From Escherichia phage vB_EcoM-G28, in sequence record NC_054916.1: a stretch of DNA of 64,000 bases; one strand, given 5' to 3'. The translations under genes were made by a program, and so were the position numbers. Shown piece by piece: positions 43,531 to 64,000 of the stretch (position 1 is the stretch's first letter; every line of letters starts with the position of its first letter). The notes below the pieces were generated by a model. The model was given only the letters and a program-made list of their open reading frames with translations, was not told the origin of the DNA and made no database searches.

Positions 43531-44001
43531 TTAATCATGTTTCCACACCCCATCGGTATTTGACCAAAGTCGCTGATTATCTGAACCTCGCCACAGCTTT
43601 TTGGTCGGAAGATTTTTCTCATACTTCCCATCAATAATAACATCAACATATTTAAGCATTTCTAGTTGTTTAATATCTTCAAACTTATATCCTGTCCACA
43701 ACCAAATGCTTTTATTGGGATAAAGATTTTTAATAGTTTGAACCACAGAGTGAATCACGTCTCTGTTATCAGGATAAAGAGGGTCTCCTCCAGTTATAGT
43801 TAATCCTTCTATATAATCATTATTCAAACATTCAATTAATTGCTCTAGTGTTTCACCAGTGAATGGAATGCCATTTCTAGCATTCCATGTTGATTTATTA
43901 TAACACCCTTCACATTTATGCAAACAACCTGTAACGAAAAGAACGACCCTGCAACCAGGGCCATTCACAAAATCGCAAGGATAAAATCTATCATAATTCA
44001 T
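43531..44001 (-). CDS. nrdG: anaerobic ribonucleotide reductase activating enzyme (radical SAM)
   Basis: 156-aa ORF; CLHKCEGCYN (C-x3-C-x2-C) cluster. Confidence 0.9.
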   Translation of the reverse strand: MNYDRFYPCDFVNGPGCRVVLFVTGCLHKCEGCYNKSTWNARNGIPFTGETLEQLIECLNNDYIEGLTITGGDPLYPDNRDVIHSVVQTIKNLYPNKSIWLWTGYKFEDIKQLEMLKYVDVIIDGKYEKNLPTKKLWRGSDNQRLWSNTDGVWKHD

Positions 44002-45815
44002 TGGTGTTTAACCCTATGCATGATTTCTTTATTTTTACCGAGATTAAATCCGCGTTCGTTCGGATTTCCCAAATAACCACATGTTCTTCTTATTGTGTTC
44101 ATCTTTTTAGGATCAGTTTCTCCACAAATAGAACAAACAAATCCGCTTTCAGTAGGAGTCATTTCATGGGTACTTCCGCATGTAAAACATTTATCTACCG
44201 GCATGTTAACACCAAAATAATCTAAATGTTGTGCAGCATAATCCCATACGGCCTCAAGACCCTTTAAGTTATTTTTCATATCAGGAAGTTCAACATAAGA
44301 AATGTGACCACCTGTCGCAATGAAATGATATGGTGCTTCACGAGAAATCTTTTCAAACGGAGTAATATTTTCTTCTACTGAAACATGGAAACTGTTAGTG
44401 TACCAGCCTTTATCTGTAACATCTTTTACGCTTCCATATTTTTCTGTATCGAGTTTACAGAAGCGATAACAAAGGTTTTCAGCAGGAGTCGAATATAAAC
44501 TAAAAGCAAAACCGGTTCTTTGAGTCCACTGCTTAAGATGAGCATTCATTTTAGTTAAAATTTCTTGTCCAATATCACGACCGACAAGAATATTCAATTC
44601 GTGAATACCAATGTATCCTAAAGACACTGAACTTCTACCGTTTTTAAATAACTCAATTATGTCGTCATCAGGTTTAAGACGAACCCCGAATGCACCTTCT
44701 TGGTAAAGAATAGGAGCAACAGTCGCTTTAACTCCTTTTAAGGAACTAATTCTACACATCAAAGCTTCAAAACATAAATCCATTCGTTCATTGAATAATT
44801 CGATAAATTTCTGTTCATTGAACTGTGTTCCAATATAAGAATCTAACGCGATGCGAGGAAGATTTAATGTTACAACACCGAGATTATTACGTCCATCAAG
44901 AATTTCATTACCGGTTGAATCTTTCCACACACTCAAGAAACTACGACAACCCATTGGAGAAACAGGAATAGATGAGCCGGTGATAGCTTTATTGTTCTTA
45001 GCTGAAATAATATCAGGATACATTCTTTTGCTTGCGCACTCTAGAGCAAGCTGTTTAATATCATAGTTCGGATCGTCTTTATAAAGATTAACACCTTCTT
45101 CAACGAACATAACAAGTTTAGGGAAAATAGGAGTTATCCCATCACGACCAAGACCTTTAATACGATTTTTCAGAATTGCTTTCTGAATCATTCGTTCAGT
45201 CCAGTCAGTTCCTGTACCAAATGTAATTGTTACAAAAGGTGTTTGTCCGTTTGAACTAAAGAGAGTATTTACTTCATATTCATAAGCTTGGAATGCATCG
45301 TATACATCTTTTTCTGTTTTAGATTGAGCATAATTCAACGCATCAGCGATTTGCCATTTTTCTGCATCCTCAATATGTTTTGCATAGGTGCGTTTAACAT
45401 AAGGAGAAAGTACTTTATCTACATTCGCAAAAGTCGTTCCGCCGTATTGGTGAGAAGCAACTTGCGCAGTAATTTGTGCCATAATTGCAGTAGCAACTCC
45501 AATTGATTTAGGAGTTTCAATCTGCGCATTACCTAGCTTAAATCCGTTTTCAAGCATTCCTTTTAAATCTACTAAACAGCAATTAGTAAATGGAAGAGCA
45601 GGGGAATAATCAATATCATGGAAATGAATAATTCCGCTTTCATGCGCTTTCATAATAAAAGACGGGACCATATTTTTGGCAATGTGTTTAGACACAATAC
45701 CAGCCATAAGGTCCCGTTGAGTTGGAAAAACACGAGAATCTTTATTAGCATTCTCGTTTAAAAGGTCTTTATTAGTTTTATGAATCAATCCTTCAATTTC
45801 TTTTTCAATTGTCAT
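43998..45815 (-). CDS. nrdD: anaerobic ribonucleoside-triphosphate reductase (glycyl radical enzyme), intron-less
   Basis: 605-aa continuous ORF; C-terminal zinc ribbon CFTCGSTHE...CSICG and glycyl-radical motif RRTCGYLG. Confidence 0.9.
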   Translation of the reverse strand: MTIEKEIEGLIHKTNKDLLNENANKDSRVFPTQRDLMAGIVSKHIAKNMVPSFIMKAHESGIIHFHDIDYSPALPFTNCCLVDLKGMLENGFKLGNAQIETPKSIGVATAIMAQITAQVASHQYGGTTFANVDKVLSPYVKRTYAKHIEDAEKWQIADALNYAQSKTEKDVYDAFQAYEYEVNTLFSSNGQTPFVTITFGTGTDWTERMIQKAILKNRIKGLGRDGITPIFPKLVMFVEEGVNLYKDDPNYDIKQLALECASKRMYPDIISAKNNKAITGSSIPVSPMGCRSFLSVWKDSTGNEILDGRNNLGVVTLNLPRIALDSYIGTQFNEQKFIELFNERMDLCFEALMCRISSLKGVKATVAPILYQEGAFGVRLKPDDDIIELFKNGRSSVSLGYIGIHELNILVGRDIGQEILTKMNAHLKQWTQRTGFAFSLYSTPAENLCYRFCKLDTEKYGSVKDVTDKGWYTNSFHVSVEENITPFEKISREAPYHFIATGGHISYVELPDMKNNLKGLEAVWDYAAQHLDYFGVNMPVDKCFTCGSTHEMTPTESGFVCSICGETDPKKMNTIRRTCGYLGNPNERGFNLGKNKEIMHRVKHQ

Positions 45816-54706: not shown

Positions 54707-55717
54707 TCATTTATAATAACTTCGGTGGTTTTCAAGATAGACCTTCTCAAGGAAGTCATCCCAGAAACCCATGTCCACTTTTTGCTGCATACCGTTCTTA
54801 GAAGCTTCAGTAGATGCTGCTTCTACTTGATCGACCACATCTTCCAAAAACTCTTGAACTGTTTTAAATGGATGCTTACCCAACTTCACGTCGAGAATAA
54901 ATGGAGCATCTTGGAGTGGATAAACCAAGTCACCAGTTTTGTAAATTTCCAATAGTTGGAGTCCACCACGACAAGCATGACTCAGAGCTTTCCAGTCAAT
55001 GCCCTCATTCGCTTCAGCCTTACGAGCGCGTTCGCCGTATTCAGCATCAAGTTTATTCAAAGATTGCTTAAGCTCGATAAGAGAAAGCGTTGTTTGATAT
55101 TTACGACCCAACACAGTGTAGAACGTTTGTGGGCCTGTTTTCTCATGATTATGGAACACCCATTCACAGAATTCGTTTTCTGGAAGACGATGCTTAATAT
55201 CTTCAACTTTAGTACGACGCTGCTTAATGGAACCGTCTTCTTGATAATCAACCCACTGATCAGGGATTTGATTAACTACTTTCAATACATCACGTAATGC
55301 GGCCAAACGAGAACCCTTAACGCCGTATTTAGAAGCTTGCTTGCGAACATATCCTAAATAGGATTTCATGTTAGTCGTATAAAAACGAGAACGATTGTCT
55401 TGAATAAACTTCCATACATCAGGCAAATCAGATTTAACCACTAGTTCAGGCGGAGTGTGAAGCATATCCAATGCTACAGTTTCACCATCTGCTGCTAATT
55501 TAAAGAAATACTTAAGACTGTATAGTTCATGGTCAATATCATCTTTAGTGTTTTTAGATGATGTGTTGTTAGTGTTTTTACTCATATGCTCTTTAACATT
55601 TCCGATAAGAATATCACGAGCAGGAGGAACAAAGATTTCTTTAAAATCTACATCAGATTCTGGAGTAGAAGTTCCATAAAGATGACTACCAAAATAAGAC
55701 TTAACTACAGTTTTCAT
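54707..55717 (-). CDS. Pol-beta-superfamily nucleotidyltransferase-like protein (nrdC.11 position)
   Basis: ~336 aa from ATG at 55715-55717 (track ORF extends to 55753); FGSHLYGTSTPESDVDF (GS-x10-D-x-D) plus downstream VALDML acidic strand. Confidence 0.55.
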   Translation of the reverse strand: MKTVVKSYFGSHLYGTSTPESDVDFKEIFVPPARDILIGNVKEHMSKNTNNTSSKNTKDDIDHELYSLKYFFKLAADGETVALDMLHTPPELVVKSDLPDVWKFIQDNRSRFYTTNMKSYLGYVRKQASKYGVKGSRLAALRDVLKVVNQIPDQWVDYQEDGSIKQRRTKVEDIKHRLPENEFCEWVFHNHEKTGPQTFYTVLGRKYQTTLSLIELKQSLNKLDAEYGERARKAEANEGIDWKALSHACRGGLQLLEIYKTGDLVYPLQDAPFILDVKLGKHPFKTVQEFLEDVVDQVEAASTEASKNGMQQKVDMGFWDDFLEKVYLENHRSYYK

Positions 55718-56480
55718 TATTAGACCTTTCATAATCTTCATTAAATTGTACAATCAATCGATGATAATTAGATTTTGGATATCCTAATTTACTTATATAA
55801 GTTCCGAATGACCCACGTTTAGGTCTATTTAATTTAATCCATAACTTATAAAGTAAGTCATAGTCTTGCCAATGTTTACCAGTTCTTTGTCTAATTTTAG
55901 ATGAATTTGATTGTTTCTTTTTAGTTTCAAAATTATTCAAAGATTTTTTGACTGCAGCAGAGTGTTTTTCTTTAACTCCCGGTCGTTTAAAAGCAGCTTT
56001 CACCCCTTTAGATATTTTTTCTTTAACTTCCGGTTTGTTTTGTGCTTCTAACTGGGATTCTGAAATTTTAGCCCTTATTTCAGGAAGACTTAATGTTATC
56101 GAACGTTTTTCTCTGTATTCATTAGACTTCCACATTTCTTTCATTGTATTAGAATGTATTTTTGAAAATTTTTCTCTAACTAACTGATATCCTCTTGAAG
56201 TTAATTTGAGATTTCTTCCTAAAGAATCTTCTCCAAAATTATAAAATGACCACCATGCATAAATTAATCCAGGCGAATTATAATGAATTTTAGCTAAAAG
56301 CCAATGGGCTATAAAATGCTCTCTAGCTGTTAATAAAACTAGATTATCAGAATCATCATTACCACCAATACAAGATGGAATAATATGATGCTTTTCCGTA
56401 TAAAAATTTAATTTAGATTTATCTAATTTTCTGAGTTTTCCTTTCTTAATTAAATTATTATATACTTTAGTATAATTCAT
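55701..56480 (-). CDS. HNH homing endonuclease (MobD-like by position)
   Basis: 259 aa; HNH core EKHHIIPSCIGGNDDSDNLVLLTAREHFIAH; C-terminal similarity to HNH at 35197-36051. Confidence 0.7.
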   Translation of the reverse strand: MNYTKVYNNLIKKGKLRKLDKSKLNFYTEKHHIIPSCIGGNDDSDNLVLLTAREHFIAHWLLAKIHYNSPGLIYAWWSFYNFGEDSLGRNLKLTSRGYQLVREKFSKIHSNTMKEMWKSNEYREKRSITLSLPEIRAKISESQLEAQNKPEVKEKISKGVKAAFKRPGVKEKHSAAVKKSLNNFETKKKQSNSSKIRQRTGKHWQDYDLLYKLWIKLNRPKRGSFGTYISKLGYPKSNYHRLIVQFNEDYERSNNENCS

Positions 56481-61290: not shown

Positions 61291-61634
61291 CTAGTACTCA
61301 ATCCTCGATTATAAGAATCTACCAAACGGTCAACCATTGAATGACAAGCGGCTTTATCTTTCTCCTCCGCAACTGAACATTCTAAGGTATTCCACTTTTT
61401 AGCATATCGTTTTAACAATGTATCATTTTTGTATCTGCTTGATTTATCTCTTTCTCCGTCTTTATATGCATATATTAATTTCTGCGCAAATTCAGCTTGA
61501 CATGCTTTATTTTTCCCACAATAATCTGCCGCAGTGCGGTTCACATACTCCCTAATTTCAGTATATGATGTATCTGCTGACGCATAAGCAGAAAATGAAA
61601 TTAATCCTATACATAAAACCAAAATTTTAGTCAT
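61287..61634 (-). CDS. hypothetical secreted protein (size/position of T4 vs)
   Basis: 115-aa ORF with N-terminal signal-like segment. Confidence 0.45.
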   Translation of the reverse strand: MTKILVLCIGLISFSAYASADTSYTEIREYVNRTAADYCGKNKACQAEFAQKLIYAYKDGERDKSSRYKNDTLLKRYAKKWNTLECSVAEEKDKAACHSMVDRLVDSYNRGLSTR

Positions 61635-62172
61635 TTACTATTTCCAAAAGTTTATTATTTTTAAGGTAATTAGCCTTTTCTAGGACTTCAGAAGCATATT
61701 TAGAACCTGCTTTAACATTCCATCCCGAATTATAAGAGGATATTGCTTTTCTTATATCGCCCTTATGTATATTTAACCAATAAGAAAGTTCAATGTACGC
61801 CCAGGAAGCTGAATTGGATCGTTTATTCAACATTCTTTTTATTTCAGCATCGGTCATATTATAACCAAGTTCCTTAACTCTCGCTCGCATAGTAGGCAAA
61901 TAATTTTGGAACATTCCATAAGCGTGATGCTTTGGTTTAGATTTTAAATTAACTCCGCCAGAGCTTTCTTGCCATAAAATAGCAGCCATTATATGACCTA
62001 ATCCGCTCTTGTGGATATTTTTGTGTGTTTTATATTTTCCATCCTTAGAAAATTGTTCCCCGAATTGATATGCGTAACGCATGTTATCGAGTTGGACATT
62101 ACTGAAAGTATGCTCGGAGCTATGTGCCATCATTGAAATGGCCAATAGACCAGCGAGTAGTGCTTTTCTCAT
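61627..62172 (-). CDS. secreted lytic-transglycosylase-like protein
   Basis: 181-aa ORF; signal peptide; AILWQESSGG resembles SLT-domain catalytic E-S motif. Confidence 0.5.
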   Translation of the reverse strand: MRKALLAGLLAISMMAHSSEHTFSNVQLDNMRYAYQFGEQFSKDGKYKTHKNIHKSGLGHIMAAILWQESSGGVNLKSKPKHHAYGMFQNYLPTMRARVKELGYNMTDAEIKRMLNKRSNSASWAYIELSYWLNIHKGDIRKAISSYNSGWNVKAGSKYASEVLEKANYLKNNKLLEIVND

Positions 62173-62179
62173 GCTTACC

Positions 62180-62641
62180 TCATTGAGTTTTAATTACTGC
62201 TTTAGAAGCCTTTCCTGGTAAACGACGACTGTTAATAATTGCCATCCTGCACTGAAGCGACGGGTCTTTGAACTTCGCATTAGGTTTACAAACTGTAAAT
62301 CCAAGCCAAAGATTTCCATCTGTGATTTCTAAACGTCCAGGACGGTATTCAACCCCATCAATAAAATCCTCGTCAATGTCAGGACGCGGAGGCATACTCA
62401 GGAATTCATTAACTTCTAAAACATGGTCTTTTATTTTGTGGAATAATTCAAAAACATATGTCTCATCAATCTCCCGTTGAATTGCACGATCAAGAAGATG
62501 CTGAGAATATTTTAGATGAAACGATGAGACTCCTGCTGCTTTTGATGCCTCACGAATCTCATTGTTAATTTGACGAAACTCCGACTCAAAGTGACGACGG
62601 AGCTTATTTCGACGGATAAAAACTTCTGTGTTGATAGTCAT
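62180..62641 (-). CDS. regB: RegB-like sequence-specific endoribonuclease
   Basis: 153-aa ORF immediately downstream of a consensus early promoter; size/position as T4 regB. Confidence 0.65.
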   Translation of the reverse strand: MTINTEVFIRRNKLRRHFESEFRQINNEIREASKAAGVSSFHLKYSQHLLDRAIQREIDETYVFELFHKIKDHVLEVNEFLSMPPRPDIDEDFIDGVEYRPGRLEITDGNLWLGFTVCKPNAKFKDPSLQCRMAIINSRRLPGKASKAVIKTQ

Positions 62642-62668
62642 GTTATTCTCCTCTTAACTGATAGAAAA

Positions 62669-62698
62669 ATTATACCACAGTCAAGAGGAAAAGTAAAC
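62669..62698 (-). promoter_or_regulatory. early promoter GTTTAC-N18-TATAAT upstream of regB
   Basis: plus-strand attata 62669-62674 and gtaaac 62693-62698. Confidence 0.65.
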
Positions 62699-62700
62699 AG

Positions 62701-63021
62701 TTATTCTTTAAATCTGATCAATTTATTCATAGACTTTGAAACTTCTGCACGAACCTCATGTAAGTTTTTAAGCTGTTCAAGACGCTGTTCATAGTAAGCA
62801 ATTTCATCTTCTTCGAGACAGTCCTGTGAATCTTCTTTAAGATAGCGTGCATAGTCCTGGAAAGCTTTACGGACTACTTCCTGGAAGTCATCAAGACTTT
62901 GAATTTTCTTAGGAGCGGCAGATACACGACGAGGGGCAGTATAATACTCATAACCAAACCCTGCACTTAATTGAGCCATTAGTATTTTTCCTCTGGTTGG
63001 AACACAGCACGGCAAGCCCAC
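62701..63021 (-). CDS. hypothetical protein (vs.3 position)
   Basis: 106-aa ORF. Confidence 0.4.
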
Positions 63022-63245
63022 ATACTTGCTTCTTTGAGTTTCGTTTTAGCAATAGTTAACTGATCGAGGCTTTCGGCGTAATTCTTCGCGAGTTCATCAT
63101 CTTCACAGCTATCAAATGCTTCCCAGAATTCATCGTATAAAGCGTCAAAGATAAGTCCCAAACGAACTTCAGCGTCTTTGATAGCATTCACTTTACCGAT
63201 TTTCTCTTCAGTATGCGGCTTATAACCCTTAATATCTTCAATCAT
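62979..63245 (-). CDS. hypothetical small acidic protein (vs.4 position)
   Basis: 88 aa from ATG at 63243-63245 (GAGGA RBS). Confidence 0.4.
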
Positions 63246-63459
63246 ATTTAACTTCCTCACCAGTACATAAATCGTATTCAACTAAACGAATAGGTTCATG
63301 AATGCCATATCCCTGAACAGAAATTTCTGTCGTAGGATAAATTCCATCAATATCACCCATATTCCAGGCTTCATTAAATTGCTGTTCGCCTGAATTACTA
63401 AACCACTCGGCGAAAGCATTTAGTACATCTTTAGAACCTTCAATAATTATCTTTGCCAT
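63238..63459 (-). CDS. hypothetical protein
   Basis: 73-aa ORF. Confidence 0.4.
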   Translation of the reverse strand: MAKIIIEGSKDVLNAFAEWFSNSGEQQFNEAWNMGDIDGIYPTTEISVQGYGIHEPIRLVEYDLCTGEEVKYD

Positions 63460-63821
63460 TATAAGCTCTCAGTAAAGGTACGAGCGATAACGTCGCGCTG
63501 CTGTTCCGGAGTCAGAGAGTTAAAGCGAACTGCATAACCTGATACACGGATGGTCAGCTGCGGATATTTTTCCGGATGCTTAACTGCATCTTCCAGGGTT
63601 TCACGACGCAGAACGTTAACGTTCAGGTGTTGACCACCTTCAATTTTAACTGTAGGCTGTGTTTCAATTTCAATTTCACGGGCGTGCAATCCATAGAAAA
63701 TTTCCGGGTCTACAAAAGAGTCCTCTTTAAAGGTTTTAGAGACAATAATTCGTGCTTGAATACCATCTTCAAAATAAATAGTACCTTTATGTGTGCCTTC
63801 AAGAATTTGATATGCTTTCAT
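63459..63821 (-). CDS. GrcA/YfiD-like autonomous glycyl-radical cofactor
   Basis: 120-aa ORF; C-terminal glycyl-radical signature RVSGYAVRF within [60 protein letters not shown]; 3' half is GC-rich. Confidence 0.8.
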
Positions 63822-63828
63822 ATAAACC

Positions 63829-64000
63829 TCAATTAGAAAATAAATTTATCCAAGATTGTTCTTTAATTAAAAATGGCTCAGAATCATATGCCATTAAACT
63901 TTGGGTGATTAGTCCTTTAAAAGGTCCATCAATAAATTCCATGGTAAAATATGGAATTTTATTCATTAGCCGTGCATTAGGAGCAGTACATAAAACTCTG
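63829..64000 (-). CDS. hypothetical protein, 5'-truncated by window edge
   Basis: open minus-strand frame running from window end to TGA at 63829-63831. Confidence 0.35.

Follow-up and report, generated by a model that had tools for sequence, protein, structure and literature searches.

Host grcA DNA in the glycyl-radical domain of vs.6, a GrcA-type gene of T-even phages

Phage T4 is widely considered to have almost no DNA in common with its host. One locus of a T-even phage raises the question of how, and how often, host DNA came to lie inside one of its genes. The locus is found in a 64,000-nucleotide (nt) stretch of Escherichia phage vB_EcoM-G28 (NC_054916.1), called the window below, which represents the left ~64 kb of a Tequatrovirus genome. 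An open reading frame (ORF) on its minus strand (63459–63821; 120 amino acids (aa), ATG start) is vs.6 (Y06I), the known T-even phage version of the GrcA/YfiD spare part (autonomous glycyl-radical cofactor). Its translation carries the glycyl-radical signature RVSGYAVRF at residues 92–100 (63522–63548), with the radical glycine G95 at 63537–63539, as an earlier reading of the nucleotide letters (the sequence-only reading) had pointed out. The gene and its biochemical role are already known, and nothing is added here as a gene discovery; the added value is evolutionary, in that the sole host-homologous stretch of the 64 kb is a domain-sized patch agreeing nearly base for base with living E. coli alleles. 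It is very probable, in our assessment, that vs.6 is a spare part for pyruvate formate-lyase (PFL) and an old homologue of grcA, the radical-domain tract of which was overwritten by host grcA and has been kept near host alleles by further conversion.

The grcA tract in vs.6

A tract of 175 nt in vs.6 (63469–63643, minus strand; base 2 of codon 60 to base 2 of codon 118) consists of E. coli grcA DNA and encodes the structured glycyl-radical domain. It is identical at 174 of 175 positions to one E. coli grcA allele (L001), the sole mismatch (63597) being synonymous, and synonymous divergence (dS, by the Nei–Gojobori method here and below) between the window phage and E. coli in the tract is 0.023. 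In a comparison set of 5,426 complete E. coli genomes, positions 179–363 of vs.6 are 96.8–97.8% identical to grcA in all 5,426. The last 61 residues of the protein are 100% identical to those of E. coli GrcA, which bears out the near-identity that had been noted for a C-terminal block of ~60 aa. In pairwise alignment, the similarity starts abruptly at ..AAAA|TTGAAGGTGG (63643) and runs to within 10 nt of the stop codon. Over 185 nt there are four mismatches, three of which lie in the last three codons, clustered in the terminal 10 nt of vs.6. The maximum chi-square test for breakpoints separates a left part with 53/115 identical positions (46%) from a right part with 178/182 (97.8%; chi2 = 109). 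When the whole window was searched by megablast against the same genomes, the tract was the only match, and the rest of the window gave none. The search with the 3′ nucleotides that the sequence-only reading had proposed also distinguishes the two candidate donors: identity is 97–100% to grcA and ~80% to pflB, and the tract is thus grcA-derived, not pflB-derived. It corresponds to GrcA residues 67–125, which is almost exactly the structured domain.

Base composition sets the tract apart in the same way. The guanine-plus-cytosine (GC) content is 47.6% at 63462–63650, compared with 34.2% for the entire window, and 48.4% at 63459–63640, compared with 34.3% at 63641–63821. The contrast between a host-like, GC-rich 3′ part and AT-rich surroundings therefore stands as first described, although the estimate of around 50% by eye was slightly high. 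The scan of GC and codon usage that had been suggested places the highest 150-nt (50.7%) and 190-nt (48.4%) GC windows of the entire 64 kb within the tract. GC at third codon positions (GC3) reaches 0.42 in the tract, whereas the 5′ half of vs.6 has 0.22; 57-codon windows of the ORFs in the window have a mean GC3 of 0.236 ± 0.063, and the value of the tract is reached by 0.23% of them. Host-type codons in the tract include CTG (five times), CGT (four times) and CCG (three times). The gene is a mosaic in which one segment has host composition and far higher host identity than the remainder (97.8% vs. 46%; GC 48% vs. 34%). Because the tract is an outlier in GC and GC3, has a sharp junction and is the sole megablast match, it is a real and unique patch of host E. 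coli grcA DNA; the two outcomes that had been named in advance as speaking against capture, no difference in GC and only distant nucleotide similarity to the host, are clearly not what was found.

Host DNA contamination or a chimeric assembly has only the unusual identity in its favour. The tract lies in frame within a conserved gene, and it recurs with the same boundaries and phage-specific flanks in about 640 independently sequenced phage genomes, including the T4 reference records, which makes an artefact exceedingly improbable. The locus also calls for caution in pipelines that treat host-identical DNA in phage assemblies as contamination.

A second GC peak is present at 54949–55048, where a 100-nt window (0.53) ties for the highest GC. 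It lies within a 348-aa minus-strand ORF (54707–55753). As a candidate for a second host patch it was rejected, having no blastn or megablast match in the 5,426 E. coli genomes.

Ancestry, identity and likely client of the gene

[quoted passage not shown] Over aligned codons, the 5′ half shares 46% nucleotide identity with E. coli grcA; its identity is 89% with Mosigvirus and 73–75% with Jiaodavirus and Karamvirus. An hhalign comparison of 57 distinct phage and 68 host GrcA N-terminal halves, from which the last 60 residues had been removed, gave a probability of 99.1% (E 6.8e-19; 27% identity) across all 60 columns. Furthermore, Nolan et al. (2006; PMC1524935) place vs.6 in a small set of T4 ORFs that every T4-like genome in their comparison retains. 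The gene had been taken for a chimera of a phage N-terminus and recently captured host sequence. The 3′ half is indeed host grcA DNA, but the N-terminus is a GrcA homologue in its own right and not unrelated phage sequence. Given the homology of the N-terminal profiles and the conservation of vs.6 in T4-like phages, the gene is an old, full-length phage grcA homologue that became chimeric through partial overwriting of its radical-domain segment by host DNA, and not a fusion of unrelated parts.

The assignment to vs.6 draws on both position and product. A nucleotide search with 701 bases around the gene found 100% identity to Escherichia phage NiC89 and 97–98% identity to hundreds of T4-type phages, RB14 and AR1 among them; the gene is annotated there as vs.6 or ‘autonomous glycyl radical cofactor’ (in NiC89 it is named grcA and is 100% identical in nucleotide sequence). 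The order regB-vs.3-vs.4-vs.5-vs.6-vs.7 is common to the window and the T4 annotation; in the window, ORFs at 61627–62172 (vs.1-like) and 62180–62641 (regB-like) precede vs.5 (63238–63459) and vs.6. As in T4, vs.6 is located between vs.7 and vs.5, 3′ of denV/vs.8 in the regB–denV early region, on the same strand and overlapping vs.5. The product is identical to T4 vs.6 (Y06I) at 118 of 120 aa, in the alignment that the sequence-only reading had called for. Residues 60–101 match the Pfam family Gly_radical (PF01228) with 67.2 bits (cut-off 22.2), and the protein is accordingly one of the small, stand-alone proteins (~120–130 aa) with a C-terminal Gly_radical domain. Its RVSGYAVRF loop is identical to those of GrcA and PflB in alignments, with G95 equivalent to G734 of PflB and G102 of GrcA. 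The best match among solved structures is E. coli GrcA (PDB 6OWR, residues 28–127; E 4.6e-42), followed by PflB 697–759; these alignments indicate a C-terminal domain like PflB 693–759 behind a variable or disordered N-terminal half.

The variable N-terminal half and structured radical domain are shared with E. coli GrcA (YfiD, 6OWR), as are 61 identical C-terminal residues and a job that the T4 orthologue also performs. In contrast to GrcA, vs.6 has an N-terminal half that is about 27–31% identical, is 7 residues shorter and has an AT-rich 5′ half. Unlike E. coli grcA, it is phage-encoded and lies in a same-strand run of phage genes, the downstream one of which is translationally coupled to it. 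The C-terminal glycyl-radical domain of PflB (~693–759) resembles vs.6 in its RVSGYAVRF loop and in about 80% nucleotide identity, but vs.6 is a stand-alone domain without the catalytic barrel.

Oxygen cleaves PFL at Gly734, and both YfiD and T4 Y06I restore the cleaved enzyme after radical installation by the PFL-activating enzyme (PFL-AE; PMC8683613). The rescue by Y06I, which the sequence-only reading had mentioned, is thus in the literature; as cited in PMC8683613, radical installation on Y06I and its rescue of cleaved PFL were described by Wagner et al. (2001). In YfiD, residues 1–60 are disordered and aid binding and activation, while residues 61–127 fold like PFL 693–759 and carry the radical (PMC8683613). 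Residues 58–120 of the vs.6 protein align to PflB 697–759 (E 5e-26), including the RVSGYAVRF loop, and PflB is its likely client. By analogy with the published biochemistry of Y06I and YfiD, the host PFL-AE would put a glycyl radical on the vs.6 protein, and the structured C-terminal domain would then stand in for the oxygen-cleaved radical domain of host PFL, whereupon activity would return. The phage would supply this part since host gene expression is shut off, and no new GrcA would be made in a micro-oxic, fermentative infection.

A different client, the phage anaerobic reductase NrdD, was hinted at when the gene was first noticed, and NrdD (43998–45815) and NrdG (43531–44001) are indeed both encoded in the window. 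A role in nucleotide metabolism was speculated by Nolan et al. (2006; PMC1524935), and spare parts for other glycyl-radical enzymes are conceivable (PMC8683613). However, a BLASTP comparison of vs.6 with the NrdD of the window found nothing significant; the best alignment (E 3.7, against 5e-26 for PflB) lies off the radical loop of NrdD. The domain is 100% identical to that of host GrcA and aligns along PflB 697–759, and it is cleaved PFL that Y06I reconstitutes (PMC8683613). The proposed link to NrdD repair thus gains no support from this comparison, and vs.6 is very unlikely to be a spare part for NrdD in place of host PflB.

Tract type and host across phage genera

Homologues of vs.6 from other phage genera were compared with grcA of 80 bacterial species, with E. 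coli alleles and with K. pneumoniae, each gene being split at the EGGQH codon into 5′ and 3′ parts. K. pneumoniae is represented by a single host allele, taken from a chromosome filed as a ‘plasmid’ in PLSDB; a search of 5.8 billion proteins returned phage and assorted Enterobacterales clusters, with no usable K. pneumoniae GrcA entry. In Tequatrovirus and Mosigvirus, GC is 0.48–0.49 in the 3′ part and 0.33–0.36 in the 5′ part, and the 3′ segment is 96–98% identical to E. coli grcA. Karamvirus-type genes have a GC of 0.38–0.42 (3′) and 0.34–0.38 (5′), and their 3′ segment is 74–80% identical, with a maximum of 80% to any of 81 host species. Krischvirus and T5 both infect E. coli and have a GC of 0.43–0.49 (3′) and 0.32–0.44 (5′); infection of E. 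coli does not in itself give the pattern, because their 3′ segments are only 72–78% identical to host grcA. The genes of T5-like phages, Krischvirus, Karamvirus and Pseudotevenvirus are like vs.6 in encoding small, stand-alone Gly_radical proteins with the RVSGYAVRF domain. Unlike vs.6, they have 3′ halves with 72–85% identity to any host grcA examined and a GC step that is absent or smaller, and they serve as unconverted or long-ameliorated controls.

Jiaodavirus, which infects Klebsiella and Salmonella, carries a K. pneumoniae-type tract, with a GC of 0.55–0.57 in the 3′ part and 0.36–0.37 in the 5′ part. Its 3′ half encodes the LLDAVEH variant that is typical of Klebsiella and Salmonella, and the tract is 97.1% identical to grcA of K. 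pneumoniae, 92% to that of K. aerogenes and 88% to that of E. coli. Over a core of 171 nt, the window phage agrees with E. coli at 170/171 positions and with K. pneumoniae at 150/171; for Jiaodavirus PSE-D1 the counts are 166/171 with K. pneumoniae and 150/171 with E. coli, and the two hosts agree with each other at 149/171. Tract replacement follows the host in these comparisons, since the Klebsiella-infecting Jiaodaviruses hold a K. pneumoniae-type tract between nearly the same boundaries. Continuing homogenisation within Jiaodavirus was considered and is unsupported: measured against the one K. pneumoniae allele, six genomes have synonymous changes that are private and scattered; here the tract looks like one older capture followed by drift.

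The boundaries themselves are shared to a close degree. Jiaodaviruses and the window phage have the same 5′ junction, with phage-type sequence up to that point, and their 3′ ends fall within a few nt of each other. The terminal ~10–12 nt are phage-specific in both groups: in the window, the last 10 nt of vs.6 (..G AGC TTA TAA; 63459–63468) hold a GAGAG Shine-Dalgarno-like element for vs.5, the start of which overlaps the vs.6 stop codon in TAATG (63457–63461), and Jiaodaviruses keep their own end, GAGGCACTATAA, which alters one amino acid (TEAL vs. TESL). In the Jiaodavirus phage Mineola, the annotation assigns this end to the ribosome-binding site of the downstream neighbour. The 5′ limit of the tract could be explained by loss of homology at the domain boundary, and the 3′ limit by the need to keep the ribosome-binding site of vs.5 and the start overlap.

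An ancient capture might also have remained nearly identical to the host through selection alone, acting on the protein and on host-preferred codons with no recent transfer of DNA. The 61 encoded residues are under extreme constraint, there being no amino acid change between phage and E. coli and the domain being near-invariant across hosts. Selection on the protein does not fix synonymous sites, however. The 171-nt core has 19 synonymous differences between E. coli and K. pneumoniae, the proteins of which are nearly identical (dS in the tract 0.65), against 1 between the window phage and E. coli. The Jiaodavirus copies gain 5–14 synonymous changes freely, and in Karamvirus, Krischvirus and T5 comparable domains are specified by codons that are AT-rich or differ in some other way. 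These synonymous-site data bring maintenance by selection alone close to refuted, and we regard it as having very little chance of being correct.

Transfer in the opposite direction, with E. coli and K. pneumoniae having taken the 3′ half of grcA from phages, deserves mention because shared polymorphism gives no direction by itself and exchange of cyanophage psbA has been reported both ways (PMC1484495). The tract has host GC and codon usage, however, and is a compositional outlier in the phage and not in the host. Host grcA adjoins ung and eamB in E. coli, and the divergence of its 3′ half between genera is about what the relatedness of the species would lead one to expect, with identities of 98.9% for Escherichia sp., 92.9% for Citrobacter and 84% for Salmonella. 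Infection by a lytic T-even phage ordinarily ends the lineage of the cell. Phage-to-host transfer is accordingly highly improbable as the source of the shared sequence.

Several further homologues were encountered in this survey. Seven IMG/VR T4-like contigs (L108–L113 and L120), several of them from human-associated metagenomes, encode vs.6 homologues of 130–137 aa, the C-terminal domain of which has Pasteurellaceae-type residues (NPDKYPQL, VITRTFTESL) and 78.7–83.6% nucleotide identity to the best host grcA (Haemophilus for four of the seven); they may be a third, older case of host tracking. Klebsiella phages including Pseudotevenvirus (L006, L007 and L101–L107, RB43 being L105) encode either the E. 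coli-type LEDAVKH or the Klebsiella-type LLDAVEH variant in DNA that is only about 83–85% identical to any host examined, and could represent old conversions that have since drifted or selection for the host-matching variant. T5 (L008, AY587007, 199–588) and many T5-like phages have a grcA-like gene 72–75% identical to the tract; the coding sequence start annotated for T5 (220) overlaps an annotated tRNA-Met gene (199–274), and the true start may lie further downstream. The IMG/VR contig L118 (IMGVR_UViG_2706794630_000006) was rejected as a third host-tracking case, because its 19-kb ‘viral’ sequence carries a full-length bacterial grcA and not a phage vs.6; this grcA is 91% identical to Yersinia grcA and agrees with that of Yersinia artesiana at 341/384 nt. 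PLSDB ‘plasmid’ records (L199, CP125156.1; L200, LR134122.1; L032) include apparent whole or partial chromosomes, such as a 5.37-Mb K. pneumoniae replicon with grcA, and the grcA of K. aerogenes NCTC10006 in PLSDB is frameshifted, probably through an assembly error.

One capture or repeated exchange

Between Tequatrovirus and Mosigvirus, dS is 0.07 in the tract and 0.49 in the 5′ half, and the tract is thus much younger than the split between the two genera. Polymorphism within E. coli bears on whether it arrived once or repeatedly. Among five E. coli alleles, the tract contains three single-nucleotide polymorphisms (SNPs), at sites 12 (A/G), 39 (T/C) and 102 (A/C), and at every one of these sites ten Tequatrovirus and Mosigvirus sequences are polymorphic for the same bases. 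Over the tract, phages L092 and L095 have the allele of E. coli 00-3076/SK1144, and phage Lv5cm has that of E. coli 184/2aE; the window phage and L093 have A102, as in E. coli strain 503025. Over 175 nt, L092 agrees completely (100.0%) with the grcA of about 45% of E. coli genomes, as estimated from an evenly spaced listing. In the phage collection, 292 records reach at least 99% identity to this allele and a further 349 lie at 95–99%, a T4 record being among them at 100%.

These observations can be set against a single recent capture of grcA by one T-even phage, followed by spread through Tequatrovirus and Mosigvirus by recombination in co-infected cells, with no continuing exchange with the host. 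Such a history is well matched by the 5′ junction (..AAAA|TTGAAGG), which is identical in all copies, and by the last 10 nt, where A174G is present in all but T4 and C177T in most; lateral spread would equally explain the dS of 0.07 in the tract against 0.49 in the 5′ half. It fits less well with the polymorphism. Were the three host SNP sites placed randomly over the 57 third codon positions, all of them would lie within the nine phage-variable sites with a probability of about 0.003, and at least two phage haplotypes are identical over the tract to two different extant E. coli alleles. We therefore regard a single capture as unlikely, though less so than the other alternatives considered here.

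Repeated host-to-phage conversion is favoured by the species-specific tracts in phages of different hosts, the three shared SNPs and the identical haplotypes, and conversion that is still ongoing within the E. coli phages seems likely rather than proven. During infection, fragmented host DNA would meet very active phage recombination, and a grcA fragment could replace the matching part of vs.6, the initial entry having perhaps occurred by homologous or homeologous recombination. Once in place, 175 nt of near-identity would ease further gene conversion from host to phage, such that the tract would stay 99–100% identical to circulating E. coli alleles while the remainder of the gene drifts. The benefit could be an exact fit to host PflB and PflA together with host-optimal codons, or the identity may be largely a by-product of recombination. 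We lean, with some reserve, towards a vs.6 that evolves in concert with host grcA, its 175-nt tract having been repeatedly overwritten in lytic infection so that E. coli phages carry circulating E. coli SNP alleles and Klebsiella phages the Klebsiella allele.

A number of points weigh against the history proposed for vs.6. The case for repeated conversion is built on only five E. coli alleles and ten phage sequences, and at mutable third positions homoplasy might give the appearance of shared polymorphism; site 39 even has a third state (G) in one phage. The common 5′ junction in all phages and the variants in the last 10 nt in most of them also fit one capture followed by phage-to-phage spread. 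The six Jiaodaviruses differ from the single K. pneumoniae allele by 5–14 scattered synonymous changes, and Tequatroviruses with Salmonella, Serratia, Proteus or Yersinia as isolation host have nonetheless kept the E. coli-type gene. As for the protein, its presumed function is carried over from T4 Y06I, from which it differs by two residues. The NCBIfam GrcA equivalog model TIGR04365 (IPR011140) aligns to residues 20–120 with 154.6 bits, which is below its curated cut-off of 170 bits, a shortfall due to the diverged N-terminal half.

The T4 gene itself resembles that of the window in genomic position, in protein sequence (118/120 aa) and in having a host-like 3′ tract, which agrees with E. 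coli at 169/171 positions in NC_000866 and at 100% over 175 nt in MT984581. Compared with T4 NC_000866, the gene in the window has T54 in place of P and R73 in place of H, as well as A in place of C at SNP site 102. In that T4 record (L198, 7558–7920), the codon for residue 73, within the tract, is CAT (His), while E. coli, the window phage and the T4 record MT984581 have CGT (Arg). No amino acid change other than His73 of NC_000866 was seen in the radical domain of the Tequatrovirus and Mosigvirus copies examined.

The closest precedent is provided by the cyanophage photosynthesis genes psbA and psbD, in which intragenic recombination between host and phage and a patchy %G+C have been described (PMC1484495). 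Like vs.6, these are host-derived metabolic genes in T4-like phages, with host-like segments attributed to intragenic recombination. They differ from vs.6 in gene, hosts and ecology; vs.6 has only one tract, with sharp limits that match those of a protein domain and with 99–100% identity to extant host alleles, and the same segment holds a species-specific allele in phages of two host genera. A literature search found no report of the near-identity of the tract to living E. coli alleles, of a species-matched tract in Klebsiella phages or of the shared SNPs, although the T4 genome review (PMC150520) and a paper on GrcA by nuclear magnetic resonance (PMC6754787) were outside its coverage and may note the nucleotide identity. 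If the proposed history is correct, vs.6 would give an example, resolved to single alleles, of continuing gene conversion from host to phage in the lytic phage that has been studied best. Should the exchange be continuing, the gene would offer a simple, experimentally tractable way to measure recombination between host and phage in a strictly lytic phage and possibly a marker of the recent host species of a phage, and the phage would keep a repair part exactly matched to the host enzyme and its activase.

Some minor features of the surrounding sequence may be noted. A Shine-Dalgarno sequence, GAGG (63827–63830, minus strand), was read from the sequence 5 nt 5′ of the vs.6 ATG. A promoter and terminator scan of 62600–64000 found nothing 5′ of vs.6 and fewer promoter-like sites than in shuffled sequences. 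The ORF 5′ of vs.6 (63829–63966) has no Pfam match and only 45 aa, owing to an in-frame stop that precedes the end of the window (64000); T4 has the 330-nt vs.7 at this place. A terminator-like hairpin with a T-run after it (63625–63639) lies on the plus strand, antisense to vs.6 and just within the tract at its 5′ junction, and is probably due to chance.

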